From an uncultured Ardenticatenaceae bacterium (lineage in GTDB: Bacteria; Chloroflexota; Anaerolineae; Promineifilales; Promineifilaceae), in assembly GCA_964410625.1 (NCBI GenBank), contig CAYPHY010000009.1:48992-112991 (forward strand): a stretch of DNA of 64,000 nucleotides, given 5' to 3'. Shown here piece after piece: positions 3,042 to 53,398 of the stretch (position 1 is its first letter; each line of letters begins with the position of its first letter). The notes under the pieces are model-generated. The model worked only from the letters and a program-made list of their open reading frames with translations. It did no database searches and was not told where the DNA came from. The position numbers were made by a program, and so were the translations under genes.

Positions 3042-3050
3042 TGAGTGTGC

Positions 3051-13105: not shown

Positions 13106-13573
13106 ATGGCGGCCGACAAAATCTTATCCCAGAAACAGTTCTTACACACCCTGCCGGATGCAACTACTCCCCATTTGCCTCTGGAACTACAAGGGATTCA
13201 AGTGCGGCGACCGTGGCAATGGCTGATACAGCTACACTACGGCGACCCCAGCCTGCACTTTGAAGTTTCCCATGTCTCGCGGCTCAATGGCTGGGAGTTG
13301 GGTTTCCACTGCGAGTCACGCGATCACCAGCTAAATTATATCCTTCTGAAGGGATTTCAAGCGCATCTGGTGGAAATCAAAGATACGCTCGGTGATCAAA
13401 TAGAGGCGGAGATGTGGGACAAGGGCTGGACGAAGATATATGAAGTTTACCCAGGGAAAACAATGACAACGGAGTATCAGGCCAATGTCGGCCGTCGCCT
13501 GGCGGAAATCATTTGTTGCTTGCAGCCGATCTTTGCGGAGTTGAGGAGCGAGACTGAGAGACTGAGAGATTAG
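13106..13573 (+). CDS. Hypothetical protein
   Basis: 155-aa ORF with an ATG start and no recognisable motif. Its last 8 codons (SETERLRD) lie in one arm of the palindromic repeat at 13547-13612. Confidence 0.5.
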   Translation: MAADKILSQKQFLHTLPDATTPHLPLELQGIQVRRPWQWLIQLHYGDPSLHFEVSHVSRLNGWELGFHCESRDHQLNYILLKGFQAHLVEIKDTLGDQIEAEMWDKGWTKIYEVYPGKTMTTEYQANVGRRLAEIICCLQPIFAELRSETERLRD

Positions 13574-13612
13574 GAGATTATAGTCGCTCAGTCTCCCAGT
13601 CGCTCACTCTCT
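13547..13612. repeat. Octamer-word inverted repeat (GAGACTGA/GAGATTAG family) shared by two convergent gene ends
   Basis: The left arm is gagcgagactgagagactgagag. The reverse complement of the right arm is gagcgactgggagactgagcgac. A related copy sits inside leuS at 36433-36479, and a related array lies at 26808-26853. Confidence 0.8.
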
Positions 13613-15021
13613 TGCTCTTTCCACACCACATCCCCAACCAGCACTAACTCTTCACCAAATGCTTGATAATGGATGTGGTGAAGTTGGGGGAGGGGCAGCG
13701 TGTTTAGCCGCCCGTTGTTCTGGATGGCGGGAAGGCCGCCCATCAGTCGCGGGGCGATGGTTACAATCAGGCGGTCAACCAGGTGTTGGGTCAGGAAGCT
13801 GGTGATCACCGCCGAACCCCCCTCGACCATTAGATTGATGATCCCTTGTTGCGTGAGCAATTGCAGCATCGCTCGTAGGTCAACTTGCCCTTGAAGCGTA
13901 GCTGGCAGGCGAAAGACATGCGCACCCGCCGCTTCCAACTCTAGTTGGCGTTGGGGGTCGGCCGCTTCCGTGGTCATAATCCACGGCCGGTGGCTGGGGT
14001 GGTGCAGCAATCTGGTCTTCAAAGGAAAGCGGAGCTGGCTATCAACAACGACCGGCTGCGGGTTCGCGCCTTCAACCAGGCGCACCGTCAACTGCGGATC
14101 ATCTACCAACACCGTGCCAATGCCAACCAGGATTGCATCATGGGCAGCGCGAAGCTGGTGGGTCAGTCGCAACGTCTCCGGGCCGCTAATCGCCGTCTGC
14201 TGCCCTTTCCCGGCCGTGATCGAACCATCCAGGCTTTGGGCATAGCTCAGCGTGACAAAGGGGCGGTTGCTGGCCGACGCTTTTTGCTGCTCCCCCCCGG
14301 CTACTTCCGTACGCTCTGAAACGCCCAGACTGAAGCGATTAAAATTGAGTAGGTGGTGCATCCGGCGCATTTTGGCATTGAGGTAGGCGATATTTTCCGG
14401 GTTGGCGGCCGTTTGCAACGGAACACGCGCGGTGATCGTCAGTCCAGCTTGTTGCAATCCTTCGATCTTATCCGGGTTGTTGGTCAACAGGCGTAATGAG
14501 GAAATGCCGAGATCGCGCAGGATGAGCGCGGCCACCGTATAGTCGCGAGCGTCCGGCTCGTGACCGAGTATCAAATTCGCGTCAACCGTATCATAGCCCA
14601 TGTCTTGCAAGTTATAGGCCCGCAACTTGTCCAGCAGGCCGATTCCCCGCCCTTCCTGGCGCAGATAGACGATGATCCCCTGTCCTTCGGCGGCAATCAG
14701 GCGCATCGCCGCCGCTAATTGCGGGCCGCAGTCACAACGCAACGAGCCTAATACATCACCGGTGAAACACTCGGAATGGACACGCACCAGGATGTTGGCC
14801 GGTGTGGATCCATTGGGCGATGGGGATGTTCCTACTTCCGCAAGGGGCATAGCCCCCGGCATATCGCCCGGCAACCCGCCGACGATCAGCGCCAGATGTT
14901 CCTTATCATCCTGATTGTTGGTGTATAGGCAAAGCTGGAACTCACCCACGTCGGTGGGGATGCGAGCGCAAGTCATCCGTTGCACAGTGAAAGCGTCCAT
15001 AGGACGGGAAGGCTCAGCCAT
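13588..15021 (-). CDS. ribA: Fusion protein: GTP cyclohydrolase II (RibA) + RibD-C-terminal-type pyrimidine reductase domain
   Basis: The N-terminal half has [22 protein letters not shown] (zinc cysteines) and [31 protein letters not shown]. The C-terminal half has [17 protein letters not shown] and [14 protein letters not shown] place the start at the ATG at 15021, overlapping the upstream stop by 8 nt. Confidence 0.9.
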
Positions 15022-15799
15022 GGGCTTGGGCAAACTCAGATGTTTGGGTAAAGCCGCGTGCCTGCCAGGCGGCATAAAGCAAGATCGAACCAGCCACGGC
15101 CGCATTCAGTGATTCGATCCGGCCGCGCATCGGCAGATAAACCAGAAAATCGCAGCGTTCGCGCACCAACCGCCGTAACCCCTCCCCCTCGTGGCCGACG
15201 ACAATGGCCAGCGGTAGATTTAGGTCTACTTCAGGCAGCGGCCGTGCGCTCTCCTGCAGATCAAGACCAGCCACCCACACCTCTGCCTCTTGCAATTGGC
15301 GAATCGTTTGCGCCAGGTTCGTCACCTGAGCGATCAACAGATGCTCAGAGGCTCCCACTGAATATTGAACAACGGCCGGGGTGATCTCCGGCGCACGCCG
15401 GTCCTGGACGATGACTCCATGCACGCCACACGCTTCGGCCGTGCGCAGCAGCGTGCCGATGTTTTGTGGGCCATGCAGTAAATCGAGGATGAGCAGAAAA
15501 GGGGGTTCCTGGCGTTCGGCCGCCAACGCCAACATCGCTTGAATATCACTATAGGGATAGGGATCAACTTCGGCCAACACGCCCTGATGTTTTGGGTCGG
15601 CGGCGAACTTTTGCGCCAACTGGTTCAGTTGTTGTTTGTCGGCCGCGTTTACCCTTACGCCACGTGCTCGTGCCTCTTTGATAATCACTGTCTGCAGCGG
15701 GTCTTTCTTATCCTTCTGGTACCACAGTTGGTGAACCAGACGACGCCCAGCACGCAGCGCTTCGAGGACAGGATGGTGGCGTGTCAGATATTCAGCCAT
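15014..15799 (-). CDS. SpoU/TrmH-family RNA 2'-O-methyltransferase (RlmB-like)
   Basis: N-terminal substrate-binding domain plus the SPOUT C-terminus: [55 protein letters not shown]. Confidence 0.85.
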
Positions 15800-20760: not shown

Positions 20761-20836
20761 TTTTGACACGAATGACACGAATAACACGAATTTTGTCTTC
20801 TATTTCGTGAAATTCGTGTCATTCGTGTCGAAAAAA
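20761..20836. repeat. CACGAAT-family inverted-repeat element
   Basis: TTTTGACACGAATGACACGAATAACACGAATTTT, a short loop, then ATTTCGTGAAATTCGTGTCATTCGTGTCGAAAA. The arms are nearly perfect and built from 9-nt words. Confidence 0.85.
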
Positions 20837-25403: not shown

Positions 25404-26822
25404 ATGGGTAGAAATGGCGCAACCCCACTGACCGATAAAGTATATACCCGCGCACCCTATTGGCAGGATGTGCCGGATGAGAAATGGATGGATTGGCGCT
25501 GGCAGATGAGCAACCGGCTCAATTCGGTGGAGGAACTCGGCCGCGTGATCAACCTCACCGAATCGGAGAAGAAGGCGCTCAGCGCACAAGGCTTGTTCCG
25601 CGTGGACATCACGCCTTACTTCGCCAGCCTGATTGACCCTGATGATCCCCACTGCCCTGTTCGCAAGCAGGTCATCCCCACCGACCGCGAGATGGTCCCG
25701 TTCCAGTCGATGATGGAGGATTCGCTGGCGGAGGACAAGCATTCGCCGGTCCCGGGGTTGGTGCATCGCTATCCCGACCGGGTGTTGATGCTGGTGACGA
25801 CGCAGTGTGCCAGCTATTGCCGCTATTGCACGCGCAGCCGTATTGTTGGCGACCCGACGCAGACCTTTAGCCGCGCGGAGTTTGACGCGCAGATTGATTA
25901 TATCGAGCGCACGCCCCAAATCCGTGACGTGTTGTTGTCAGGCGGTGATCCGATGGTGCTGGCTCCGAAGTTGTTGGATATGATCCTCGGCCGTCTGCGG
26001 GCTATCCCCCACATCGAAATCATCCGCATTGGTTCGCGCGTGCCGGTCTTTTTGCCGATGCGCGTGACGGATGAGTTTTGCGAGATGATTTCCAAGTACC
26101 ATCCCTTCTGGCTGAATATCCATGTCAACCACCACAAGGAGATCACGCCGGAGCTGGCGGCCGCTTGTGACCGGCTGACTCGCGCAGGCGTGCCGTTGGG
26201 CAACCAGAGCGTGTTGCTGGCGGGGGTCAATGACTCGGTGGCTTTGCAGCGCAAGCTGGTGCATGAGCTGGTGAAGATTCGCGTGCGGCCGTACTATCTC
26301 TATCAATGCGATCTGGTCGAAGGGTCCGGCCATCTGCGGACGACGGTCAGCAAGGGGATTGAGATCATCGAAGGGTTGCGCGGCCATACCTCTGGTTATG
26401 CCGTGCCGCAATATGTGGTGGATGCGCCGGGTGGCGGTGGCAAGATTCCGGTGATGCCGAACTATGTCATCTCGCAAGCGCCGGGCAAGGTTGTTTTGCG
26501 CAACTTCGAGGGCTTCATCACCACCTATAGCGAGCCGTTGGACTATGATCCGTATGAGATCAAGGAGCAAGAGGCATTGGTCGCTCCGCGGCCGGAGCCG
26601 GGGCAGGAGGGGATCCACGGCTTGTTGCAAGGGGAACGGATGTTTATTGAGCCGGAAGGCTTTTCCGACACCCATTCACGCGGTGGCGCGGAACATCGCC
26701 TGCGCAGCGGCGAACTGGCGCAGAAGTGGCAGCCGCTGGGCGTTGGCTCAATTGAAGTGAAGCAGCGGCCAGCGGAGTTGGTGGCGGGGGAAGAGAATGG
26801 GCAGGAGGAGACTGGAGATTAA
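25404..26822 (+). CDS. kamA: Lysine 2,3-aminomutase (KamA-family radical SAM / PLP enzyme)
   Basis: Radical-SAM CASYCRYCTRS, LLSGGDPM and the KamA-type N-terminus (WQDVPDEKWMDWRWQMSNR). The last codons run into the GAGATTGG octamer array. Confidence 0.9.
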   Translation: MGRNGATPLTDKVYTRAPYWQDVPDEKWMDWRWQMSNRLNSVEELGRVINLTESEKKALSAQGLFRVDITPYFASLIDPDDPHCPVRKQVIPTDREMVPFQSMMEDSLAEDKHSPVPGLVHRYPDRVLMLVTTQCASYCRYCTRSRIVGDPTQTFSRAEFDAQIDYIERTPQIRDVLLSGGDPMVLAPKLLDMILGRLRAIPHIEIIRIGSRVPVFLPMRVTDEFCEMISKYHPFWLNIHVNHHKEITPELAAACDRLTRAGVPLGNQSVLLAGVNDSVALQRKLVHELVKIRVRPYYLYQCDLVEGSGHLRTTVSKGIEIIEGLRGHTSGYAVPQYVVDAPGGGGKIPVMPNYVISQAPGKVVLRNFEGFITTYSEPLDYDPYEIKEQEALVAPRPEPGQEGIHGLLQGERMFIEPEGFSDTHSRGGAEHRLRSGELAQKWQPLGVGSIEVKQRPAELVAGEENGQEETGD

Positions 26823-26853
26823 GAGATTGGGAGATTGGGAGATTGAAAGATTG
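26808..26853 (+). repeat. Octamer tandem array (GAGATTGG family)
   Basis: gagactgg agattaag agattggg agattggg agattgaa agattg. It overlaps the kamA stop codon at 26820-26822. Confidence 0.8.
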
Positions 26854-27031
26854 TTTTTGACACGAATTGCACGAATGGACACGAAGTTGATGTGGGTTTG
26901 GGGTTTTACCACGGATTGATACGGATTAGACGGATGAACACGGATTTTATTGTATGGAATCCGTGAAAATCCGTTTCATCCGTAAAAATCCGTGGTCTAT
27001 TCGTGAAATTCGTGTCATTCGTGTCGAAAAA
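26854..27031. repeat. CACGAAT-family inverted repeat carrying a second element nested in its loop
   Basis: Outer arms: TTTTTGACACGAATTGCACGAATGGACACGAA and TTCGTGAAATTCGTGTCATTCGTGTCGAAAAA. Confidence 0.8.
26909..26995. repeat. CACGGAT-family inverted repeat nested inside the 26854-27031 element
   Basis: CCACGGATTGATACGGATTAGACGGATGAACACGGATTTT, loop attgtatgg, then AATCCGTGAAAATCCGTTTCATCCGTAAAAATCCGTGG. Confidence 0.8.
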
Positions 27032-28684: not shown

Positions 28685-31429
28685 TTACTGCAACAAGGTA
28701 ACCATGTCGCGGGCATCGGAATGATCAGGGAAGAGTGCAATAAAATCTGTTAGATCATCTATAGCCATCTGAATCAAGTGCAGTGGAGGCTTTTCAAAAA
28801 GTCCGATTTGATATAACCTACGTGCTTCTGTCGTCTGGTTCGCAGCAAGATAGTATAAGGCGAGGTTAAATCCATTTAGCCAGTCATGAGGATTTGCTTG
28901 ATAGGCTTCTTTCGCTTTTCGTATTGCTTCTGATAGATCTACCATTGCTTTTGTCGTTTGTGCCAGGGTTAAGTAGGTTATACCACGTTGATAATAATTC
29001 CAGTCTGATCCTTCAAGTCCAACAACGAATTCAAAATCGGCAAGTGCAGCTTCGTACAGTTTCATTAATCGGTAGCTCTCTCCGCGACTAGAAATGGCAG
29101 AAATTTCGTTTGGATCAATTGCAACAACATAATTGTAATCAACTAATGCCAGTTCTAGCTCTCCTTTATCCCTATAGACATTACCTCGATTGTAGTAGGC
29201 AGCAACCATTTCTGAGTCAAGTCCAATAGCCTTGTTGAAATCGGTCAAAGCTTCATCCAGCTTTCCCAGCTTTGCGTGAATAAAGCCCCTGTTAGCGTAT
29301 GTAGCTGCCACTTCTGGGCGAAGTTTAATTGCGTGGTTGTAGTCAGCTAGGGCCTCGGCTAGTCTTCCCTGTTCAGCATAGCTAAGCCCCCGATTATTGT
29401 AGGCAGCAGCAAAGTCTGGGTCAACCTCAATTGCGCAGTTGTAGTCAGTAATGCTTCGGTCTACTTCTCCCAACTTGGCATAAGTATTGCCTCGATTGTA
29501 GTAGGCAAACGCATATTTAGGGTCAAGTGCTATAGCACGGTTGTAATCAACTAGTGCTTTGTCTAGATTCCCCTGTTTGACATGCACGTTGCCCCTGTTG
29601 TAATAAGCAGTAGCATCATTCGGATTGAGGGCAATAGCGCATTCATGATCGGCCTGGGCTAACTCCCACTTTCCTTGATCGGCATATGCGAGACCACGAT
29701 TGTTGTAAGCGATAGCAAGTTCTGGATCAAGCGTAAGCGCGCGGTTGTAATCAAGTAATGCGAGTTCTAGCATCCCCAAGTCTTTATAAACATTCCCCCG
29801 ATTGTTATAGGCGATGGCGTACTCCCCGTTAACTTCGATAGCACGAGTGTAATCAGCTAAAGCCTGATCCAATTTCCCTTGTATTTTATAGATCTTACCT
29901 CGGTTGCTATAAGCTGTAGCGTCTCCAGGTTCGAGTAAGATAGCATGATTGTAATCCATCAGAGCCAGGTCTAGTTTTCCCTGGTCTTCGTAGGCTAGAC
30001 CACGGTTGTTATAAAGTCCATGATGGAGATTAAGCATCAATGCAGTAGTATATAGGCGAATAGCTGTTTCGATCTTGCCCTGGTTACGGATAGTAAACGC
30101 CAAGTTAAATAAAGCCCACATGTGAGGAATAGCGCTTGGGTGGAGACGTTGTAATCGTAAGAACCGCCAGATGCGTCGATGATGAAGCAAAAAGGCAACA
30201 ATTTGTTCTGTGGCATGGTTAGGGGTGAGACGCCCTTCTGTGAGAACATCAGGATAGATAATTTGATCTGACCTTGAGATAATATCAAATTGGGCAAGGT
30301 AGGCTAGGTCACTGCTTAAGCGCCTATTTGCAAACCAGGGAATAAGCCAACGACGCTCATAGCTCCATAGCTTTGCGGCATATTGAAGTAATAAGGTTGT
30401 GTAACTAGGGATCCTGGCCGCGTAGAAAGTATCCAAGGCTGCAAACAGGTAACGAGTAGCAGGTCTGTGCTTTTGGATATCGTTGCGTACATTAGCCCAA
30501 GTCTGGGCTAAGCTTTCGCGAACGAAGCGTTGAGCGGTTTCTAGATCTATATAGGTCCATCCGCTAGTATCGAGTCGACGGAAATTGAGCAAGGTCAGCT
30601 CGGGTGTGCCGTCGCGGCCTTCAATGAAAGCTTGGCGAGCCGTATCATCGAGTTGGAGTTCATAGAGATCAGTGGCGTTTTCTACCAGGTATCGGGTTTG
30701 AAGCTCGTCGAGAGGGGGAAGCTCGAGGAAGAGAAAGTGTTGTCGTTCAAGCCACTTCTTTTGTGCTACGGTTAGCTGATCAAGACGAGCGGTTGCGATA
30801 ATGAATGCAGCCTTGACTTGGTCTAACACTGCAAGGGCAGCGGCGAGTTGGTCAAGATCGGAATCGGCAAAGGATTGGGGCAGGTCTTCAAGCAGAAGGA
30901 GGATCGACAAATGGGGGTGGAGAGAGCGATCCAGAGCTTGGCGAAGACTCTCAACGTTGAGGAAGCGAAATTCGGGGGCGGGTTCGTAAAGGCAATTTTC
31001 GAAGACTACTTCTTGGGCGATAGCACGGCGGATAAGTTCGGCGGCTTCACGGCTTTTGCCGATTTTCATGCGGCCGGTGATGAGGATGCGGTGGTGGCGA
31101 TAGAGGAGGTCGGGATGGGTAATTTGGCGATCAATCCAGTTGATGGCGGCGCTGCGGCCAAAGCGTTGCATGAGTTCATCGAGGGTGATGGGGCGGAGTG
31201 GGTTGGTGAGGAGGGGGTCGGGAGTACGGTCGAATAATCTATCGAGGAGTTGAAGACCATCGTTGAAAGCGGAAAGTGCAGCAAGGACAGCAGGGACGAC
31301 CACACCAAGAAGGAAAAGCGCGTTTCTCCAGGGTTGGGGGAGCAGGGATGGAACGAACCAGCTTATACTAAATAGTAAAGCGGATGGGATTATGATGATA
31401 AGGGCAAGGTGAAGCAATGGCCGGTTCAT
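28685..31429 (-). CDS. Membrane-anchored P-loop NTPase (STAND/AAA-like) with about 11 C-terminal TPR repeats
   Basis: Two N-terminal TM helices (aa ~5-25 and 37-55), Walker A ITGRMKIGKS (nt 31052-31075) and Walker B-like LSILLLLEDL. A helical region is followed by tandem 34-aa TPR units (A.A/YNNRG..Y...G....A..DYN.AI.L.P) across nt ~28880-30000. Confidence 0.8.
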   Translation of the reverse strand: MNRPLLHLALIIIIPSALLFSISWFVPSLLPQPWRNALFLLGVVVPAVLAALSAFNDGLQLLDRLFDRTPDPLLTNPLRPITLDELMQRFGRSAAINWIDRQITHPDLLYRHHRILITGRMKIGKSREAAELIRRAIAQEVVFENCLYEPAPEFRFLNVESLRQALDRSLHPHLSILLLLEDLPQSFADSDLDQLAAALAVLDQVKAAFIIATARLDQLTVAQKKWLERQHFLFLELPPLDELQTRYLVENATDLYELQLDDTARQAFIEGRDGTPELTLLNFRRLDTSGWTYIDLETAQRFVRESLAQTWANVRNDIQKHRPATRYLFAALDTFYAARIPSYTTLLLQYAAKLWSYERRWLIPWFANRRLSSDLAYLAQFDIISRSDQIIYPDVLTEGRLTPNHATEQIVAFLLHHRRIWRFLRLQRLHPSAIPHMWALFNLAFTIRNQGKIETAIRLYTTALMLNLHHGLYNNRGLAYEDQGKLDLALMDYNHAILLEPGDATAYSNRGKIYKIQGKLDQALADYTRAIEVNGEYAIAYNNRGNVYKDLGMLELALLDYNRALTLDPELAIAYNNRGLAYADQGKWELAQADHECAIALNPNDATAYYNRGNVHVKQGNLDKALVDYNRAIALDPKYAFAYYNRGNTYAKLGEVDRSITDYNCAIEVDPDFAAAYNNRGLSYAEQGRLAEALADYNHAIKLRPEVAATYANRGFIHAKLGKLDEALTDFNKAIGLDSEMVAAYYNRGNVYRDKGELELALVDYNYVVAIDPNEISAISSRGESYRLMKLYEAALADFEFVVGLEGSDWNYYQRGITYLTLAQTTKAMVDLSEAIRKAKEAYQANPHDWLNGFNLALYYLAANQTTEARRLYQIGLFEKPPLHLIQMAIDDLTDFIALFPDHSDARDMVTLLQ

Positions 31430-31493
31430 GGTGGTCTGTTTTGAGTTGTCCTCCCTGGGGGATTATGGCGGGAATGGAGGGAATTTGCAAGGG

Positions 31494-31570
31494 GTGGCAG
31501 GTGGCAAGTAGCAGGTGGCAGTAAGCGGTAATCGGTGTTTGGTGATTGGTGGTGGGTGAGGGGTGGGATA
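31494..31570 (+). repeat. Heptamer array (GTGGCAG family, 11 in-phase units)
   Basis: gtggcag gtggcaa gtagcag gtggcag taagcgg taatcgg tgtttgg tgattgg tggtggg tgagggg tgggata. It lies in the divergent spacer between the STAND gene and the terminase island. Confidence 0.8.
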
Positions 31571-31653
31571 CGCGGGTTGGCAACCTGCGCTGCGAGAGGT
31601 GCAGAGTGCGGGTGCGTCGGAGGGAGGTGGGGGAGTAGAATGGGGGAGGGAAT

Positions 31654-31688
31654 GGTTAATTGTCAATTGTGAATTGTTAATTGTGAAT
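31654..31688 (+). repeat. Heptamer array (TGTNAAT family)
   Basis: ggttaat tgtcaat tgtgaat tgttaat tgtgaat. Similar arrays precede each island ORF (31965-32000, 32390-32420). Confidence 0.75.
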
Positions 31689-31944
31689 GGAGGCGGGGAT
31701 GGTTAGGGGTGAGGAGGTGGATGTGGAGTTGGAGGTGGCAGCGGCGCGGGGGGTGTTGCGGCGGTTGGTGGAGATGATGGCGGATCAGCGGAATCCGACG
31801 CTGGTGATGGCGTTGAGCCGGGAGATTGCGCGGCAGGTGGAGGTGATTGGGGGGTTGTTGGGGAGGAAGCGAGATGGGGGAGAGGGAGAGGCGTGGTTGA
31901 TGGGGGTTGTGGAGGAGGTGTTGGGGGAGAAGGATGAGGGATGA
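31687..31944 (+). CDS. Hypothetical protein of the G-rich island
   Basis: 85-aa ORF in a stretch where random stops are expected about every 20 codons. 26 of its first 30 codons end in G and none in C. No motif recognised. Confidence 0.5.
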   Translation: MEAGMVRGEEVDVELEVAAARGVLRRLVEMMADQRNPTLVMALSREIARQVEVIGGLLGRKRDGGEGEAWLMGVVEEVLGEKDEG

Positions 31945-31998
31945 AGGATGAGGGATGAGGGGGGAGAATGGTTAATGGTGAATTGTTAATTGTGAACG

Positions 31999-32382
31999 GT
32001 GATGAGGGGGGTGCTGATGGGGGAGGAAGGGCTTTCGACGAAGCAGGTGTTGGTTTTGAATGCGTTGTTGGCGGGGAAGTTGAAGCGGGAGGCGGCGGAG
32101 ATGGCGGGGGTGACGCCAAGGACGGTTTCGCGGTGGATGCAGTTGCCGGTGTTTCGGGCGGCTTTGAACCGAGAGGCGGCGGAGTTGAGTATGGTGACAT
32201 CGTATTTGTCGGCGCGGGCGGTGGTGAAGGCGTTGGAGCAGTTGATTGCGCTGCTGGAGGGGGATAGTAAGGAGACGTTGAAGGTGAAGGCGGCGATTGG
32301 GGTGTTGCAGCATCATCCGGCGGTGTGGTTGGGGCCGATTGATGCGGAAGTGGTGAAGAGAAGGATGAGGGATGAAGGATGA
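31999..32382 (+). CDS. HTH-domain protein, small-terminase-like by position
   Basis: LSTKQVLVLNALLAGKLKREAAEMAGVTPRTVSRWMQLPVFRAAL is an HTH motif, and the gene lies directly upstream of the TerL-like gene. Start ambiguous: GTG at 31999, or ATG at 32002 or 32017. Confidence 0.55.
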   Translation: MMRGVLMGEEGLSTKQVLVLNALLAGKLKREAAEMAGVTPRTVSRWMQLPVFRAALNREAAELSMVTSYLSARAVVKALEQLIALLEGDSKETLKVKAAIGVLQHHPAVWLGPIDAEVVKRRMRDEG

Positions 32383-32428
32383 AGGGTGAGAATTGTGAAT
32401 TGTCAATTGTTAATGGTGAAGTGGGGGG

Positions 32429-34162
32429 GTGGACATGGAAGATGGGAAGGTTCGGGAAGCGTTGCGGCGGGTGTTGGGGGATGTGGGGCGGTTTTCGCGG
32501 TTTGTGTTGGGAGTGAGGTTGCGGGGATACCAGGCGGAGCCGTTGCGGGAGATCGTGGACTCGATCTTGCGGAAGGAGGGGCGGGAGTTTTTGTTGGTGT
32601 TTCCGCGGCAGGCGGGGAAGAATGAGGCGGTGGCGCAGTTGTTGGCGTATTTGTTGGTGTTGTTGCAGGGACGAGGAGGGAATGTAGTGTTTGCGGCGAT
32701 TGGAGATGGCGTAGGGCGCGGGATGCGGCGGTTGGAGGAGCATTTGGAGAATCCGCTGACGAGGGGACGGTGGGGACGACAGCGACGGCCGGAGGCAAGG
32801 GTGCTGGGGAAGGCGGCGGTGGTGTTTTTGAGTTCGCATCCGTCGGCGAAGGCACGAGGGGAGACGGCGCATCATTTGTTGATTATTGATGAGGCACAGG
32901 ACCAGTATAGCCATCATGTGGAGGCGGTGTTTACGCCGATGCGGGCGGCGAATAATGCGACGGCGGTGTATATGGGGACGGTACGGACGACGAGTGATTT
33001 TTTGTGGCGGAAGAAGCTGGAGCTGGAACGGTTGGAGGAAGGGGATGGGGTACGGCGGGTGTATCTGGTGTCGCCAGAGGAGGTGGTGGCGGAGAATGGG
33101 GATTATGGGCGGTTTTTGGCGGGGCAGATTGCGAAGTATGGGGAGAGGCATCCGATTGTACAGGCGGAATATTTTTTGCGGCCGATGGATAGGGAGGGTG
33201 GGTTGTTCCCGGAGGAACGGCGGCGGTTGATGAGGGGGGTGCATTATCGGAGAATGGGGAGATTAGAGATTGGTGATTGGGAGCGTGCAGAGGAGCAGAG
33301 GAGCAGGGGGGCGGAGGAGAGAATGGTTAATGGTGAAGGGTTAACGGTGAATGGTCAATTGGAGAGTGGACGGTTGTATGTGGCGGCGGTGGATGTGGCG
33401 GGGCAGGATGAGGGGGCGAGCGGGGAGTGGCAGGTGGCAGGTGGCAAGTGGCAGGTAGCAGGGGAAGAATTGGTGAATCCGGGGAGGGATTGGACGGTGG
33501 CGACGGTTTTTGAGGTTAGGGAGGGGGCAGGTAGCATTGGGCCGGGGTATTGGGCGGTGGATGTGTTTGTGGATCATGGGGGGCGGCATTTTCAGGAAGT
33601 GGGAGGACGGCCGAGCCTGGCGGCGCGGCTGTTAGGGTTTTTACGGCATTGGGAAGTGAGTGGGGTGATTGTGGATGCGTCGGGGGTGGGGCAAGGGTTG
33701 GCGGATTGGCTGATGGCGGAGATGGGGAAGCAGCGGGTAATCGCGTACCATTTTGCGGGGCGGGGGCAGAAGGCGATGTTGGGGAGCCGGTTCTTGAGTT
33801 TGATCGAGACGAACCGGTTTAAGTATTGGTGTGGCGATGAACATGAGGTGGGGAGTGATGGGTGGTGGTTTTGGGAGCAGGCGGCGCGTTGTTCGTACCA
33901 TCTGGCGCCGAGGGGGTTGTTTGAACGGGATTTGCAGTGGGGCGTGGGGGAAAACCAGATGGTGGAGACACCGTTGGGACGGGTGAGGGTACATGATGAC
34001 CGGTTGATGTCGGCGGCGTTGATTGCGGAGTATGATTTTTTGGCGCGACAGGGACGAGTGATGATGGGAATGGCACGGAGTGAGATGGTGCGGCCGGTTG
34101 ATCCATTGGAATTGGAGAGTAAGGGGGATGGATTGGGTAGTAGTAGTAGTAGGCGGTCATAG
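32429..34162 (+). CDS. Phage terminase large subunit-like ATPase-nuclease
   Basis: Walker A VFPRQAGKNE (about 32600-32626) and Walker B/catalytic LLIIDEAQDQ (about 32869-32905). RNase-H-like nuclease acidic motifs: YVAAVDVAGQDEG (about 33374-33415), VIVDASGVGQGLADWL and VHDDRLMSAAL. The 577-codon ORF is open despite G/A/T-rich composition. Confidence 0.8.
   Translation: MDMEDGKVREALRRVLGDVGRFSRFVLGVRLRGYQAEPLREIVDSILRKEGREFLLVFPRQAGKNEAVAQLLAYLLVLLQGRGGNVVFAAIGDGVGRGMRRLEEHLENPLTRGRWGRQRRPEARVLGKAAVVFLSSHPSAKARGETAHHLLIIDEAQDQYSHHVEAVFTPMRAANNATAVYMGTVRTTSDFLWRKKLELERLEEGDGVRRVYLVSPEEVVAENGDYGRFLAGQIAKYGERHPIVQAEYFLRPMDREGGLFPEERRRLMRGVHYRRMGRLEIGDWERAEEQRSRGAEERMVNGEGLTVNGQLESGRLYVAAVDVAGQDEGASGEWQVAGGKWQVAGEELVNPGRDWTVATVFEVREGAGSIGPGYWAVDVFVDHGGRHFQEVGGRPSLAARLLGFLRHWEVSGVIVDASGVGQGLADWLMAEMGKQRVIAYHFAGRGQKAMLGSRFLSLIETNRFKYWCGDEHEVGSDGWWFWEQAARCSYHLAPRGLFERDLQWGVGENQMVETPLGRVRVHDDRLMSAALIAEYDFLARQGRVMMGMARSEMVRPVDPLELESKGDGLGSSSSRRS
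33255..33464 (+). repeat. Word-array repeats (GAGATTG, GGTTAATGGTGAA, GTGGCAG families) inserted in frame in the TerL-like gene
   Basis: The encoded peptide is MGRLEIGDWERAEEQRSRGAEERMVNGEGLTVNGQLESG ... GEWQVAGGKWQVAGEE. It flanks the first nuclease acidic motif. The DNA words are identical to those of the intergenic arrays. Confidence 0.75.
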
Positions 34163-34963: not shown

Positions 34964-35040
34964 ACACGGATCAAACGGATCAATACGGATTTTTGCCAGG
35001 AAATCCGTAAAAATCTGTCAAATCTGTGTAATCCGTGGTT
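34952..35040. repeat. CACGGAT-family inverted-repeat element
   Basis: AACCACGGATAGACACGGATCAAACGGATCAATACGGATTTTT, loop gccagg, then AAATCCGTAAAAATCTGTCAAATCTGTGTAATCCGTGGTT. Confidence 0.8.
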
Positions 35041-35060: not shown

Positions 35061-37622
35061 TTACGGCAAGCTACTTGTTACTATGTTCACCAATCTGCCA
35101 GGGACGAAGATGATGTTCTGGATAACGCGGCCGTCCACGTGCCGCTGCACGACCGCGCTTTGCATGGCAGTTTCTCGCATCGTTTGTGGATCGCTATCGG
35201 CCGCTATGGTCATTCGATCTCGCACTTTGCCATCCACCTGCACTACAATCGTCACCTGCTCGTCAATGGTCAGCGCTTCGTCATAGGTCGGCCAGGGTTG
35301 GCGGTGGACGGAATCCGTCCCGCCCAGCACGGTTTGCCAGATCTCTTCGGTGATGACCGGCGCGATGGGGGCCAGCAGCAGCGTGAAGTCGCGAATGGTC
35401 TCTCGCCATTGCGCGGCCGATCCGACTCCCGCTTCCCGCATCACGATCAATTCATTCAGATGTTCCATCAGTGCAGCAACGGCCGTGTTGAAGCGAAACT
35501 GCTCCATCTCTCGTGTGATGCGCTGGATCAGCTTATGGCGGCCGCGTTCCAATTGCGGATCGCGGATTGGGGATTGCGGAGAGGTGGGGAAATCCGCAAT
35601 CGGCATTCCGAACTCCGCAATCTCTTGTGTTAGTCGCCAGTATCGTTCCAGAAAGCGACTGACGCCAATGATCCCGCGGCTATCCCAGACGACGCTGGCG
35701 TCGAATGGGCCGACGAACAGGATGTAGGTGCGGGCGGCGTCCACGCCCCATTCCGCTACCACCTCATCGGGCGTGACGACGTTGCCCTTTGACTTCGACA
35801 TCTTTTGCCCGTCTACGGCCGAATGCAGCATCCCCTGGTTACGCAGTTGGGTAAACGGCTCGATGAAATCCACCAGCCCGGCATCGTACATCACCTTTGT
35901 CCAAAAGCGAGCATATAGCAGGTGCATGACGGCGTGTTCCGCCCCGCCGACATAGAGGTCAACGGGCAGCCAGCGGCGAACGGCTTCGGGGTCAAACGGC
36001 CGATCCGCCTCGTGCGGGCTGGGGAAGCGCAGGAAGTACCAGGAGGAGCAGGCGAAGCCATCCATCGTATCCGTCTCGCGTTGCGCCGGGCCGCCACAGT
36101 TGGGGCAGGTGGTGTTGACCCATTCGGTTGCGTTTGCCAGCGGCGAACGGCCGTCGCCTGTCGGCCGGAAATCTATCGCTTCCGGCAGCAGCACCGGTAG
36201 TTCCTCTTCCGGCACAGCCACCGCGCCGCAATCGGGGCAATGGACAATCGGGATTGGTGCGCCCCAGTAACGCTGGCGAGAGATGAGCCAGTCGCGCATC
36301 TTGTAGGCGACTTTCGGCCGCCCCGTCCCCTGTGTTTCCAGGTCGGCGGTGATTTGCGGGATGGCCTCGGCCGATTCCATACCCGTATATGGCCCGGAGT
36401 TGATCAGGGTTCCGTAACGGGTCTCTACAATAGGAGACTGAGAGATTGGGAGAGTAGGAGATTTAGTCTCCCAGTCTCCAGTCGCTTGAATAACCGGCAC
36501 GACCGCCAGCCCATACCGTTGGGCAAAGGCGTAGTCCCGCGCGTCGTTGGCCGGGACGCCCATCACCGCGCCTGTACCGTAGCCCATCAGCACGTAGTCG
36601 GCCACCCACACCGGAACGGGTTCGCCGGTCAGCGGGTGAGTGGCATAGGCACCGGTAAAGACGCCATTTTTCTCCTGATTGGCCGCTGCGCGGTCGATCT
36701 CCGTCATCCGCTTGGCCGCTTCGACATAAGCGTCTACTGCCGCCCGCTGCTCCGGCGTTGTGATTTCGGCGACCAGCGGATGCTCTGGGGCCAGCACCAG
36801 GAACGTCACCCCATACAACGTATCTGGCCGCGTCGTAAAGACCACAATCTCCCCTGCTCCTCCGCTCCTCTGCTCCCCGGCAGCCGCGCTTTGCCTAACA
36901 ACAAACGATACCTCTGCCCCCTCCGAACGGCCGATCCAATTTCGCTGCGCCGTCTTGATCGAGTCCGGCCAGTTGATCGTTTCCAGGTCGGCCAGCAGCC
37001 GGTCGGCATAGGCGGTGATCTTGAAATACCATTGCTTCAGCTCTTTGCGCGTCACCAGCGAGTCGCAACGCCAGCAACGGCCGTTTTCCACTTGCTCATT
37101 GGCTAGAATGGTCTTGCAACTGGGACACCACCACTGGCTGCCCGTTGCCTGGTAAGCCAGGCCGCGCTCAAACAGCAGGCGGAAGAACCATTGAGTCCAG
37201 CGGTAAAAATCGGGATCGGTCGAGCTAAACTCCCGCGACCAATCATAGGAACATTCGATCAGCTTGAACTGGCGCTTATAGGTGGCGGAAAATTGGCGGC
37301 TGCTTTCGCTAGGGTGGATGCCGTGCTTTATGGCGTAATTTTCGGCCGGCAGCCCAAAGGCGTCCCAGCCCATGGGATGCAGCACATTGTAGCCACGCAT
37401 CCGCATGAACCGCGCACCGACGCAGGTAGGGATGTAGTTGCGGCAGTGACCGACGGACAGGCCATCGCCGGAGGGATAGGGGAAGAAGTCGAGGATGTAG
37501 TAGTGGGACTTGCCGGGATCATCCCCGGTCTTGTACAGGTCAATCGCTTCCCAATACGGCCGCCACTTCGCTTCCAACGTTCTAAAGTCGTAGCGCGTAT
37601 TTTCAATATGCTCTTTGATCAT
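35061..37622 (-). CDS. leuS: Leucine--tRNA ligase
   Basis: Class I HIGH-type (FPYPSGDGLSVGHCRNY) and KMSKSKGN motifs, CP1 editing domain and zinc-finger-like CxxC pairs. I prefer the ATG at 37622, 5 nt after GGAGA (the track uses TTG at 37634). It carries two in-frame repeat insertions (35551-35624 and 36433-36479). Confidence 0.95.
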   Translation of the reverse strand: MIKEHIENTRYDFRTLEAKWRPYWEAIDLYKTGDDPGKSHYYILDFFPYPSGDGLSVGHCRNYIPTCVGARFMRMRGYNVLHPMGWDAFGLPAENYAIKHGIHPSESSRQFSATYKRQFKLIECSYDWSREFSSTDPDFYRWTQWFFRLLFERGLAYQATGSQWWCPSCKTILANEQVENGRCWRCDSLVTRKELKQWYFKITAYADRLLADLETINWPDSIKTAQRNWIGRSEGAEVSFVVRQSAAAGEQRSGGAGEIVVFTTRPDTLYGVTFLVLAPEHPLVAEITTPEQRAAVDAYVEAAKRMTEIDRAAANQEKNGVFTGAYATHPLTGEPVPVWVADYVLMGYGTGAVMGVPANDARDYAFAQRYGLAVVPVIQATGDWETKSPTLPISQSPIVETRYGTLINSGPYTGMESAEAIPQITADLETQGTGRPKVAYKMRDWLISRQRYWGAPIPIVHCPDCGAVAVPEEELPVLLPEAIDFRPTGDGRSPLANATEWVNTTCPNCGGPAQRETDTMDGFACSSWYFLRFPSPHEADRPFDPEAVRRWLPVDLYVGGAEHAVMHLLYARFWTKVMYDAGLVDFIEPFTQLRNQGMLHSAVDGQKMSKSKGNVVTPDEVVAEWGVDAARTYILFVGPFDASVVWDSRGIIGVSRFLERYWRLTQEIAEFGMPIADFPTSPQSPIRDPQLERGRHKLIQRITREMEQFRFNTAVAALMEHLNELIVMREAGVGSAAQWRETIRDFTLLLAPIAPVITEEIWQTVLGGTDSVHRQPWPTYDEALTIDEQVTIVVQVDGKVRDRMTIAADSDPQTMRETAMQSAVVQRHVDGRVIQNIIFVPGRLVNIVTSSLP
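35551..35624. repeat. Heptamer-array inverted repeat (ATTGCGG / CCGCAAT) inside leuS
   Basis: attgcgg atcgcgg attgggg attgcgg agaggtg gggaaat ccgcaat cggcatt ccgaact ccgcaat. It is translated on the minus strand as ...FGMPIADFPTSPQSPIRDPQLE... Confidence 0.75.
36433..36479. repeat. GAGACTG-family hairpin inside leuS
   Basis: GGAGACTGAGAGA, loop ttgggagagtaggagattta, then GTCTCCCAGTCTCC. It is translated as ...GDWETKSPTLPISQSPIVE.... Same family as 13547-13612. Confidence 0.75.
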
Positions 37623-37643
37623 GGCTGTCTCCAAAAATTATGA

Positions 37644-37685
37644 CTTGTGAATTATGAATTGTGAATGGCTAATGGGCCATTCAAA
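37644..37685. repeat. Heptamer array (ATTNTGA family) in the leuS 5' region
   Basis: cttgtga attatga attgtga atggcta atgggcc attcaaa. Confidence 0.65.
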
Positions 37686-37772
37686 CAAAAACGGCCACAG
37701 TGTGTTTACCCTGCGGCCGTTTTGACCATGATCCATTCATAAACAAAAAAGCCACAGGGCGACCCCTGTGGC
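37685..37772 (-). promoter_or_regulatory. Two terminator-like hairpins with U-tracts in the leuS upstream leader (minus strand)
   Basis: Read on the minus strand, GCCACAGGG-gtcg-CCCTGTGGC + TTTTTTGTTT lies at 37742-37772. ACGGCCGCAG-ggtaaacaca-CTGTGGCCGT + TTTTTGTTT lies at 37685-37724. Confidence 0.45.
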
Positions 37773-38185
37773 GTTTGAGTTTCAACCTGGTTCTATTTGC
37801 TTGCTCATTCGGCCGGGCAGGGGGTTAGGACGGCAACTAAGTTGCCAAGTAACAAGCCCCGTAACGATTGCCGATCAAATGAGTAATTCATTGCTATCAA
37901 TCCTGATCGCTAAACGATAATAGCAGATTAGCACAGCTATAGGGGTGTGTCAAGCGTGATTTTCTTAAAATGTGGCTTCTCTGTGTAGGGCAGCGATTTG
38001 GGAAAATCGCCGTACAGCGTGTCAACGTTCATCTGCCAAAATGGTGGCGGCCGATTCTCCTGCAACCACGCGCTCTGCTTGCTCGCTCCCGTGTCCCCCT
38101 GATAGAATAGACGACCCAGGTAAAACGATTGAGGTAGGAAGGAATAGACCCCCATTTAGCACAAAAACCCCAAAGGAATAGAGCC

Positions 38186-43187: not shown

Positions 43188-43197
43188 GGAAGAAGCG

Positions 43198-43268
43198 ATC
43201 CACGAATCTGCACGAATTTTCACGAATGAGACTTATAATTCGTGTAGATTCGTGTAAATTCGTGGATC
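43198..43268. repeat. CACGAAT-family inverted-repeat element
   Basis: gatCACGAATCTGCACGAATTTTCACGAATgagacttataATTCGTGTAGATTCGTGTAAATTCGTGgatc. Confidence 0.85.
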
Positions 43269-43406
43269 CTTAGGAGGATTATTATTATCAATGCCTGAGA
43301 TTGAACTTAACGAATTTTCACGAATGAGACTTATAATTCGTGTAGATTCGTGTAAATTCGTGGATCCTTAGGAGGATTATTTTTATCAATGCCTGAGATT
43401 GAACTT
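43212..43406 (+). repeat. Near-perfect 98-nt tandem duplication (2 x 97 nt, 1 mismatch)
   Basis: Copy 1 is 43212-43308 and copy 2 is 43310-43406. Each contains part of the CACGAAT element, the AGGAGG RBS and the first 6 codons (MPEIEL) of the GNAT gene. Confidence 0.9.
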
Positions 43407-53208: not shown

Positions 53209-53224
53209 GAAGCATAAATTCAAT

Positions 53225-53290
53225 CCACGAATCTACACGAATTTTCATGAACAGAAGCCAATATTCGTGTAGATTCGTGAGAATTCGTGG
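53225..53290. repeat. CACGAAT-family inverted-repeat element
   Basis: CCACGAATCTACACGAATTTTCATGAA, loop cagaagccaat, then ATTCGTGTAGATTCGTGAGAATTCGTGG. Confidence 0.85.
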
Positions 53291-53398
53291 ATCGCTTTAG
53301 GAGTTTTCACGGGCGAATGCACACCAAAAGCGGTGAAAATTGAGTTTATCAGCGTTTGTCCGCGTTCGTCCGCGTCCTATTTTCAGGAGAGAAAAGCC

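Follow-up and report, generated by a model that had tools for sequence, protein, structure and literature searches.

The leuS gene of the window, by which we mean the whole 64,000-nucleotide stretch of DNA analysed here, carries three short repeat elements that leave its reading frame unbroken: two hairpins, B and C, and an array without a hairpin, A. These segments are probably passenger repeats of the genome's own class, tolerated in permissive loops of LeuRS and translated along with the rest of the enzyme. In-frame palindromic repeats are mainly known from the Rickettsia palindromic elements (RPEs), and a reading of this stretch made from its sequence alone had likened the two hairpins to them.

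The leuS coding sequence (35061..37622, minus strand) encodes 853 amino acids from a likely ATG start at 37622, within an open reading frame listed as 35061..37634 that stays open back to a TTG at 37634. Its product is identical to a database protein (P0001), contains tRNA-synt_1, editing and anticodon-binding domains (PF00133, PF09334, PF13603, PF08264) and has 1h3n as its top solved-structure match over the full length (E 1e-252). The Pfam and 1h3n matches confirm that the host gene encodes an essential aminoacyl-tRNA synthetase, and the class I catalytic core, the CP1 editing domain and the anticodon-binding domain identify it as a bacterial-type LeuRS. Among the matches listed, its nearest named relatives are from Anaerolineae, Ardenticatenaceae and Promineifilaceae. 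Two further repeats flank the gene. A heptamer array of AATTGTG/AATTATG units (37636..37666), which holds promoter-like hexamers, lies directly upstream of the start, and an ACGGAT-type tandem-unit hairpin (I8, 34964..35029; z −4.0) lies directly 3′ of the stop codon, the usual intergenic place for tandem-unit hairpins of this class. The flanks of the latter are not alignable with the closest relative, hence there is no empty-site comparison for it. Rfam returned no family for the hairpins or the leuS leader (local search up to E 0.01, whole window at the gathering threshold).

Hairpin C (35552..35621, minus strand) consists of four ATTGCGG-type heptamers, a 12-nt loop and four CCGCAAT-type heptamers. 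Its arms (35552-35580 and 35593-35621) are 29 nt each and 79% complementary, and TRF reports a period of 7 at 35552-35580. The mRNA-sense fold has a dG of −33.8 kcal/mol (z −4.65), and 1 of 200 shuffles was equally good. The element is read as IAEFGMPIADFPTSPQSPIRDPQ (amino acids 668-690) in the linker ahead of the anticodon-binding helices. Hairpin B (36433..36479, minus strand) is made of GAGACTG/GAGATTG units and their complement and is read as TGDWETKSPTLPISQSP (amino acids 381-397) in a distal loop of the CP1 editing domain. It folds with a z of −4.5 in mRNA sense and −6.4 on the plus strand, values that none of 200 shuffles reached, and after GC correction it is the strongest gene-interior structure of the window. 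The sequence-only reading had described both hairpins as lying in frame inside an intact leuS, and this holds, with fold z values of −4.5 to −6.4; the peptides it quoted match the ORF translation. It had not mentioned array A (36851..36876, minus strand), a TRF-detected run of GGAGCAGA-type 8-nt units without an inverted partner. This array forms no hairpin (z +1.0), is read as GEQRSGGAGE (amino acids 249-258) in the first editing-domain loop and corresponds to a 10-aa gap in the alignment with T. thermophilus LeuRS. One example of a leuS peptide that bridges an insert junction is ...IADFPTSPQSPIR... We rejected an intrinsic terminator role for hairpins B and C, neither of which is followed by a T-tail. 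A G-quadruplex, a structure proposed for GGGGATT repeats (PMC4692102), was also considered; hairpin C contains only one G4 run, which makes it an unlikely candidate.

Two of the three elements have relatives elsewhere in the window. Hairpin B is 87% identical over 47 nt, loop included, to intergenic DNA at 13550-13596 (E 1e-5), within a hairpin (I12, 13550..13601, plus strand) located between the convergent 13106..13573 (plus) and a riboflavin-synthesis gene at 13588..15105 (minus). The earlier claim that both hairpins use the same words as the intergenic arrays is therefore correct for B but not for C, for which a similarity search within the window found no significant relative and whose ATTGCGG heptamer occurs 12 times against 15 expected. 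Array A matches 33287-33309 in a terminase-like gene with 96% identity over 23 nt. This copy (33287..33319, plus strand) is itself in frame, as AEEQRSRGAEE, and is the first among four in-frame arrays (33287-33462) in an ORF resembling a terminase large subunit (PHROG 2 match, E 8e-10).

The wider repeat class is built from runs of 7-10 nt units, usually followed by an inverted run so that a 45-90 nt hairpin forms, and falls into loose, dispersed unit families (GAGATTG/GAGACTG, GGAGCAGA, CACGAAT, ACGGAT, GTGGCAG and GCGGATT). In addition to the array in hairpin C, TRF detects about 20 others in the window, a density of 3.3 per 10 kb compared with 0.40 in 74 loci from other phyla among the matches listed. 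Nearly all strong hairpins lie 3′ of a gene, and most arrays and hairpins fall in the ~17% of the window that is non-coding (~83% is coding); the only genes with such repeats in their interior are leuS and the terminase-like ORF. GAGATTG occurs 21 times in the window against 8.9 expected, and its only three matches in leuS are the three repeat sites. Array A and hairpin C are stop-free in all six frames and hairpin B in two of the three coding-strand frames, whereas the intergenic hairpins have 0 to 2 open frames out of three per strand. All 12 hairpins share one polarity on the plus strand regardless of gene orientation, one hairpin is nested within the loop of another (26859-27025), and the elements at 43197-43268 and 53223-53292 are similar over their whole length, loop included. 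Unit families are common to different genera for 6 of 20 arrays (shuffle mean 1.7, P 0.0025). The units GAGATTG, GGAGCAGA, GTGGCAG, CGCAAAG and GCGGATT are common to Chloroflexota genera whose LeuRS are ~65% identical.

We compared leuS with that of its closest relative (L001). Outside the sites of A, B and C, the two genes align over 2347 nt with 90.7% identity and zero gaps, and mismatch rates are 3.8, 2.6 and 21.6% for first, second and third codon positions. Every indel sits in sites A, B and C (66, 24 and 15 nt, each a multiple of 3), where identity drops to 45, 66 and 83%. At site A, the relative has an unrelated array that is 66 nt longer. At site B, the left arm has been replaced by a different, non-complementary array. 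The fold there is of no more than moderate stability (dG −37.5, z −2.4; the window has a z of −4.9). Site C is homologous but diverged, and a stable hairpin is kept in both genomes in a different pairing register. The insert peptides are almost wholly different between two LeuRS that are otherwise ~90% identical in DNA. By this comparison, the leuS segments are lineage-specific and turn over fast. The relative carries an array of the A family at site B and GAGATTG arrays at site A. An exchange between A and B by intragenic recombination was rejected, since a recombination event involving inverted copies would flip an essential segment; we prefer to see these arrays as probable independent draws from a few stop-free families. 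Directly upstream of leuS, the array at 37636..37666 differs between the two genomes by 14 nt, exactly two units, and this non-coding change contrasts with the multiple-of-3 indels inside the gene. The next ortholog beyond L001 is only 69% identical and thus offers no high-identity empty site from which insertion boundaries or a target duplication could be read.

Across 64 orthologs, loop lengths range from 7 to 41 aa at A, 12 to 63 at B and 18 to 44 at C. Short loops are the commonest class at each site (7 aa at A in 17, 18 aa at B in 27, and 19 or 21 aa at C in 30 of the 64), and the window's loops at B and C are 27 and 30 aa against medians of 18 and 21. The segments are not conserved across distant taxa; they lengthen variable loops in a lineage-specific manner, as the alignments with the 64 orthologs and L001 indicate. 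The idea that they are insertions thus stands insofar as the loops are longer than in most orthologs, and is only partly right for hairpin C, which includes native linker. Because this hairpin spans 23 codons yet lengthens the loop by only about 9, it is an insertion in part that has also overwritten or recruited native sequence; its first unit falls on native E-I-A codons. In an AlphaFold model of LeuRS with a mean pLDDT of 85, the three segments are low-confidence coil, with pLDDT <50 at 251-254 (A), 386-396 (B) and 677-680 (C, coil at 671-688). They are thus predicted to occupy disordered surface loops, in agreement with what the sequence-only reading had expected. All three sites lie near domain borders, at the CP1 entry, in the distal CP1 loop and in the linker to the anticodon-binding domain.

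The same loops are used repeatedly. In 87 leuS genes, 17 internal arrays have a period indivisible by 3, and 14 of these fall at sites A, B and C, including arrays in Verrucomicrobia (L015) and Nitrospinota (L048). Some of the orthologs have strong structures at these positions, such as CACAGAT ×3 / ATCTGTG ×3 at site A of L004 (z −7.3) and the site B folds of L083 (dG −85, z −6.4) and L088 (z −11). Others have arrays with little or no structure: L086 has a heptamer array without a hairpin at site C (z +1.7), and L087 has two different heptamer arrays there with a weak fold (z −1.2). The hairpins and arrays at these loops in other lineages are unrelated in sequence to those of the window. Many ortholog inserts encode peptides with a 7-aa period.

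Our preferred explanation starts from the 3′ intergenic space, the usual home of the repeats. Arrays would arise, vary in copy number and replace each other by a DNA-level process, most likely replication slippage, template switching or ectopic conversion between arrays. Periodicity is a property of the DNA rather than of the protein because 7- and 8-nt units are not multiples of 3. In leuS, the repeats would persist because the three disordered loops accept any sequence, the unit families of A, B and C lack stop codons, and changes in length survive only in multiples of 3. The ribosome would then read through them, producing low-complexity peptide loops with a ~7-aa period, presumably at little cost to the enzyme. 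Simple tolerance is challenged by the concentration of three of the window's roughly four intragenic events in a single gene. The uniform plus-strand polarity and the nested hairpins would fit a directed mechanism better than plain slippage. A more speculative proposal, which we regard as possible but hold only tentatively, is an active process linked to the replication strand that would write and rewrite the GAGATTG, GGAGCAGA, GTGGCAG, CGCAAAG and GCGGATT arrays at permissive sites faster than point substitution, perhaps via an enzyme shared with, or convergent on, the maker of the STRR heptamers of cyanobacteria.

Several of the same features would also be expected of true miniature mobile elements of an RPE-, REP- or MITE-like kind, moved whole by a transposase acting in trans. 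Similarity extends through the loop both between hairpin B and 13550-13596 and between 43197-43268 and 53223-53292, a hairpin sits inside another's loop at 26859-27025, the sharing of unit families between genera exceeds the shuffle mean, and a common polarity of the 12 hairpins is what Y1 transposases, which are linked to replication through ssDNA, would produce. We nevertheless consider such mobility rather unlikely. No transposase or RAYT domain was found in the 32 window ORFs scanned with Pfam (ORFs at 38-64 kb scanned partly), neither a GTAG or CGTC tag nor a target-site duplication or flanking direct repeat is visible at hairpins B and C, and hairpin C lacks a relative in the window. In addition, the 14-nt whole-unit difference upstream of leuS and the replacement of a single arm at site B of L001 look like slippage or conversion and not like cut-and-paste. 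The hairpins could instead be kept for a function, either in the mRNA (ribosome pausing at domain boundaries that aids co-translational folding, or processing and stability) or through a lineage-specific role of the loops. The position of all three sites at or near domain borders fits this, as do the strong hairpins at the same loops in several orthologs. The retention of a stable site C hairpin in both genomes despite divergence and a changed register is a point against the passenger reading and could reflect selection on structure. Such a function is nonetheless improbable, given that site A forms no hairpin, the left arm at site B of L001 is non-complementary and its fold modest, structure is missing or weak at site C of L086 and L087, short loops prevail at each site, insert peptides differ almost entirely between closely related genomes, and B and C have no terminator-like tail.

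The variation in length of these loops across LeuRS generally, and a site C linker in T. thermophilus LeuRS that is equally long and aligns without a gap, would also suit ordinary hypervariable low-complexity linkers whose likeness to the repeats and hairpin potential are coincidental. This explanation is already disfavoured and seems very improbable in view of the 7-8 nt periods, the hairpin z values, the significant DNA matches to copies in non-coding DNA and in an unrelated gene, and the enrichment of GAGATTG with leuS matches solely at the three sites. Least probable of all is that repeats were mis-joined into leuS during assembly of the MAG. The window comes from a single assembly; the frame, however, is intact through all three sites, the leuS genes of L001 and L002, from two independent sequencing runs, are identical and have analogous inserts at the same sites, and many other assemblies have inserts at the same loops.

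The comparison with RPEs holds in some respects and fails in kind. Like RPEs, the leuS elements belong to hairpin repeats found between genes and in frame in essential genes, where they leave the ORF intact, lie at the protein surface and have no known function. RPEs, as summarised in PMC10969869 and PMC3733652 (Ogata et al. 2000), form a ~100-150 bp family with a conserved consensus and family peptide and a CGTC end. The elements here are 47-70 nt long, consist of a variable number of 7-8 nt units and have neither a conserved family peptide nor a tag, with neither CGTC nor GACG at the ends of hairpins B and C (read at 35545-35630 and 36425-36490). Moreover, Rickettsia RPEs are stable insertions, whereas the Chloroflexota elements turn over at the same sites. 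The description of in-frame colonisation as rare elsewhere was also too strong, as intragenic REPs, ERICs and Anabaena MITEs have been documented (PMC3733652, PMC10969869). On these sequence features, the elements do not appear to be members of the RPE family, and their closer analogues are the heptamer arrays of bacteria, cyanobacterial STRRs among them, and intragenic REPs.

Heptamer repeats in bacteria include GGGGA(T/C)T in Nostoc and GGGAATC in Xanthomonas (PMC4692102). As in cyanobacterial STRRs, the tandem heptamers described here form many dispersed arrays that are mostly intergenic and scarce in coding DNA, some of them inverted with stem-loop potential. STRRs also occur now and then within a functional gene where its structure tolerates them, for instance the RNase P RNA gene (Vioque 1997, as cited in PMC2858038). 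The GGGGATT/GCGGATT unit of hairpin C is essentially the Nostoc unit (PMC4692102), and an Aliinostoc locus carries GGGGATT arrays. The remaining units differ from STRR1-3, the host is a member of another phylum and not a heterocystous cyanobacterium, and most of the arrays described here form hairpins with an inverted partner. In the STRR literature examined, we found neither in-frame residence in protein loops nor recurrent reuse of loops across lineages. REPs and ERICs are small palindromes usually located 3′ of genes and sometimes within coding sequences (Di Nocera et al. 2013, PMC3733652; also Delihas 2007, as cited in PMC10969869). In Xanthomonas recB, REPs that differ between species sit at nearly the same position, much like the reuse of sites in leuS. 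REPs, however, are single, RAYT-linked palindromes of 20-40 nt with a GTAG/CGTC tag; none of the window's hairpins is of this type, as they are short-unit arrays without a visible tag, and no RAYT was found among the 32 ORFs scanned. MITEs derive from an IS and have terminal inverted repeats and a target-site duplication. The elements here are inverted repeats throughout, and no direct repeat was seen beside them, with the boundaries unfixed for want of an empty site. We found no description of these elements in Chloroflexota in the literature, although Chloroflexus aurantiacus tops the listed bacteria for satellite number (76; PMC6749651).

What distinguishes this case is a different repeat class, tandem-heptamer hairpins apparently related to STRRs, in frame in an essential aminoacyl-tRNA synthetase. 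Its dynamics are visible in three loops reused across lineages and in the replacement of one array by another between genomes otherwise 91% identical, and the sequences themselves reveal the stop-codon and frame filters. Selfish repeats may in this way add new loops to proteins, and leuS offers a tractable natural system for studying the acquisition of disordered protein loops from selfish DNA and the origin of heptamer arrays. If arrays are indeed actively written, the process would regularly supply essential enzymes with new peptide loops, and its targets would include the same three loops of LeuRS in no fewer than three named phyla (Chloroflexota, Verrucomicrobia and Nitrospinota). In practical terms, the three loops could serve as safe insertion points in LeuRS, and the arrays can mislead both the alignment of orthologs and the calling of genes in Chloroflexota MAGs.

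The GCGGATT/GGGGATT unit family of hairpin C is also present in other metagenome contigs, as found in a scan with ATTGSGGATTGSGGATTG as the query in which only ~10 bacterial-type matches were usable. Most matches were short contigs with the repeat at both ends in inverted orientation, and two of them, L145 and L155, read at an internal junction, have a GC content of 21-30%. We take these short contigs to carry eukaryotic telomere-like CCCCAAT repeats, comparable to those of rumen ciliate nanochromosomes. On an unrelated contig, a glycine dehydrogenase carries the GCGGATT family in frame, in the linker between its domains.

The repeats lie in leuS (ORF 35061..37634, minus strand; likely start at the ATG at 37622), which by Pfam and by alignment to the Thermus thermophilus enzyme (1h3n; end to end, E 1e-252) encodes a complete bacterial-type leucyl-tRNA synthetase. 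Pfam recognizes a class I catalytic core, a LeuRS editing domain and an anticodon-binding domain. Database protein P0001 matches the 853-aa product exactly, and the closest named relatives come from Anaerolineae, Ardenticatenaceae and Promineifilaceae MAGs, which places the window in a Chloroflexota genome. The sequence-only reading had placed two palindromic repeats in frame in this complete ORF; both hairpins are real, and their translated peptides agree with those it quoted. Hairpin C has two 29-nt arms (35552-35580 and 35593-35621) that are 79% complementary around a 12-nt loop; one arm comprises four heptamers (ATTGCGG ATCGCGG ATTGGGG ATTGCGG) and the other is its inverse. In mRNA its folding energy is -33.8 kcal/mol (z -4.65), equalled by 1 of 200 dinucleotide shuffles. 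Hairpin B (36433-36479), made of GAGACTG/GAGATTG units, reaches z -4.5 when folded as mRNA and z -6.4 for the plus strand; none of 200 shuffles folded equally well. In a GC-corrected scan of all 70-nt windows, B is the strongest structure within any gene and C ranks fifth among gene interiors. A third in-frame segment, array A (36851-36876), consists of GGAGCAGA-type 8-nt units read as GEQRSGGAGE; repeat finding and folding of this interval revealed neither an inverted partner nor a hairpin.

As anticipated, the segments map to probable surface loops. In an AlphaFold2 model computed from an alignment of 64 sequences (mean pLDDT 85, pTM 0.79), A, B and C are predicted to be coil flanked by confident elements; pLDDT drops under 50 for residues 251-254 in A, 386-396 in B and 677-680 in C, the last corresponding to the hairpin loop. 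Aligned to 1h3n, A and B lie in gaps within the CP1 editing domain and C lies in the linker preceding the anticodon-binding helices. Among 64 Chloroflexota LeuRS sequences these three loops are highly variable in length and the rest aligns easily: site A ranges from 7 to 41 aa (median 14.5; 19 in the window LeuRS), site B from 12 to 63 aa (18; 27) and site C from 18 to 44 aa (21; 30). Many of the longer loops contain 7-residue periodic peptides (GQVASGQVAS, SEQVSVNSEQVSV, SGQYSVSSGQYSV), a pattern characteristic of 7-nt units translated through all three frames. This identifies the segments as lineage-specific additions. The proposed insertion holds only in part for C, however: the hairpin spans 23 codons but adds only about 9, and its first heptamer coincides with E-I-A codons that are also present in orthologs, so that C partly overwrites or recruits the native linker.

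Comparison with the closest ortholog (P0002; 87% identical protein), whose gene is identical in two independent runs (loci L001 and L002), indicates rapid turnover at these sites. Elsewhere in leuS, the 2347 aligned nt are 90.7% identical with zero gaps, and mismatch rates of 3.8, 2.6 and 21.6% at first, second and third codon positions point to strong purifying selection. All indels are confined to sites A, B and C (66, 24 and 15 nt, each a multiple of 3), where identity is 45%, 66% and 83%, respectively. The relative's site A carries GAGATTG-type arrays and another repeat. At its site B a GGAGCAGA-type array, of the family present at window site A, forms the left arm, and the right arm is still recognizable; site C holds a homologous hairpin in a different pairing register, with a 15-nt gain that is itself a small palindrome. 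A non-coding heptamer array directly upstream of the leuS start (37636-37666) is two units (14 nt) longer in the window, within flanking DNA that is about 96% identical. The arrays thus change faster than the surrounding sequence. Within leuS only frame-preserving changes persist, an indirect indication of translation of the segments. The upstream array contains a promoter-like TTCACA-17-CATAAT (37637-37665, minus strand), so its length could shift promoter geometry.

Other genera carry unrelated hairpins in these loops: site A of Candidatus Leptofilum proximum contains CACAGAT x3 / ATCTGTG x3 (dG -41, z -7.3), and site B holds a GGCCGAC-type hairpin in database protein P0012 (dG -85, z -6.4) and a 42-nt unit repeated 2.6 times in P0031 (dG -95, z -11). 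In P0018 and P0034, site C is occupied by heptamer arrays. Across all loci in hand (87 leuS genes), 14 of the 17 internal arrays whose period is not divisible by 3 fall at sites A, B and C, which together make up less than 9% of LeuRS; the site-mapped arrays include leuS genes of Verrucomicrobia (L015) and Nitrospinota (L048). An exact 7-mer in common with window units occurs in 6 of 20 arrays of relatives (shuffle mean 1.7, P 0.0025) versus 0 of 22 in other phyla. The Nitrospinota gene (L048 100-2559; MAG JACQEW010000332.1) carries in-frame CGAATCC at site B, AAGACAG at site C and a third heptamer array, CAGAAGC, in a fourth loop (reference aa 727-739). Its array loops do not exceed those of orthologs in length, so an array can take the place of a loop and not only extend it. 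In a metagenome scan, hairpins of the GCGGATT/GGGGATT heptamer family, to which C belongs, were present on bacterial-type contigs (L113, dG -68; L140, dG -85), and on L120, an unrelated contig, a CAATCCG array of this family (1000-1035; peptide EPAIRIRQSAIRNSEF) lies in frame between the two halves of a glycine dehydrogenase (GcvP).

A recurrent architecture in the window is a run of 2-4 units of 7-10 nt followed, after a short loop, by the inverted run, as in CACGAAT-type (20761-20833, 43197-43268, 53223-53292) and ACGGAT-type (26908-26996, 34964-35029) hairpins; nearly all lie directly 3' of genes. The density of arrays with a period of 7-10 and three or more copies is 3.3 per 10 kb in the window, 0-5.9 in relatives and 0.40 in 74 loci of other phyla. 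The suggestion that the leuS elements use the same words as the intergenic arrays is correct for B, which matches a hairpin between convergent genes (13550-13596) at 87% over 47 nt including the loop (E 1e-5 within the window) and is a genuine member of the window family. It fails for C, which has no relative in a similarity search of the window, where ATTGCGG is not enriched (12 matches versus 15 expected). Array A shares 96% identity over 23 nt with an array (33287-33309) in frame within a terminase-large-subunit-like ORF (32429-34162, plus strand; PHROG 2, E 8e-10). This ORF contains four consecutive in-frame arrays over about 176 nt (33287-33462: GCAGAGGA, GAATGGT, a 15-mer and GTGGCAG), read as ...AEEQRSRGAEERMVNGEGLTVNGQ...GEWQVAGGKWQVAG..., and is probably a second gene with translated arrays.

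A 7-nt array passes through all three frames, and a stop triplet in its unit will therefore break the ORF by the third unit. A and C have no stop in any of the six frames, and B is free of stops in two of its three coding-strand frames; the intergenic hairpins, which are abundant, have 0 to 2 of 3 frames open per strand, mostly none or one. This filter accounts for the small number of families seen in genes, and also for the reappearance of the same families at different leuS positions in the window and its relative.

The best-supported reading is that the leuS segments are passenger copies of a hairpin-forming repeat class resembling the cyanobacterial heptamer arrays (STRR), which three permissive loops tolerate and which are translated as disordered peptide. 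Function of the hairpins in leuS mRNA is disfavoured, as site A lacks pairing, pairing at B and C is weak or lost in relatives, short loops are frequent among orthologs and no terminator tail follows B or C. Whole-unit indels, single-arm replacement and palindromic micro-insertions point to spread of these passenger copies by slippage, template switching and ectopic conversion. There is room for enzyme-driven spread linked to the replication strand: dispersed copies are similar over the whole element, one hairpin is nested in another's loop, and all 12 tandem-unit hairpins (13552-53292) share one polarity irrespective of gene direction, with the purine/G-rich, CACGAAT or ACGGAT arm first on the plus strand. 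GC skew is positive in all 8-kb sliding windows but one (-0.002 at 16-24 kb), and the uniform polarity suggests a link to the replication strand. Against an enzyme, Pfam found no transposase domain among the 32 window ORFs scanned.

Overall, the hairpin observation is confirmed and extended, and its interpretation partly supported. The proposed likeness to Rickettsia palindromic elements applies to behaviour (in frame, surface-located, hairpin-forming) but not to membership, given the differences in length, family consensus and CGTC tag (PMC3733652, PMC10969869). In make-up the window elements resemble STRR and bacterial heptamer arrays, although they occur in another phylum and are usually paired as hairpins (PMC4692102); the GCGGATT/GGGGATT unit of C is essentially the GGGGA(T/C)T heptamer known from Nostoc (PMC4692102). 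Reuse of one site by different elements, as in the LeuRS loops, has a precedent in the intragenic REPs (short tagged palindromes) of Xanthomonas recB (PMC3733652). We found no prior description of these elements or of the three-loop LeuRS pattern in the searchable literature, the coverage of which is incomplete.

The window has several further features. Tandem arrays (GGTGGCA, GAATTGT, GGATGAG, GGAGGT and others) take up almost all of the roughly 1.1 kb (31279-32420) that separates a TPR-repeat gene from the terminase-like ORF, always with the G-rich strand on plus, which accounts for the GC-skew peak of the window (0.29). CACGAAT arms (26859-26885 and 26999-27025) enclose the complete ACGGAT-type hairpin at 26908-26996 in a nested hairpin (26859-27025), ahead of which a GAGATTG array (26815-26853) provides the stop codon of a lysine-2,3-aminomutase-like gene. 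A 98-nt tandem duplication (43212-43406; 2.0 copies, 98% identical) includes a CACGAAT hairpin and the next gene's ribosome-binding site and start region. A TTGACAA heptamer array (5917-5953) lies in the C-terminal part of a putative 1068-aa coding ORF (3045-6251, plus strand) whose Pfam domain match is limited to residues 109-432. The roughly 300 nt upstream of leuS (37670-37990, minus strand), roughly 96% identical to L001, contain two terminator-like stem-loops, one of which (37751-37772) is followed by a T-run; the region has no Rfam match, T-box included, and could represent a small RNA or leader that has escaped annotation. The word GAGATTG is over-represented in the window (21 versus 8.9 expected), with only three copies in leuS, one at each array site: 35618-35624 (C boundary), 36442-36448 (inside B) and 36845-36851 (A boundary). 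Another copy (33266-33272) directly precedes the terminase-like ORF arrays, and the motif may seed array formation or provide microhomology for it.
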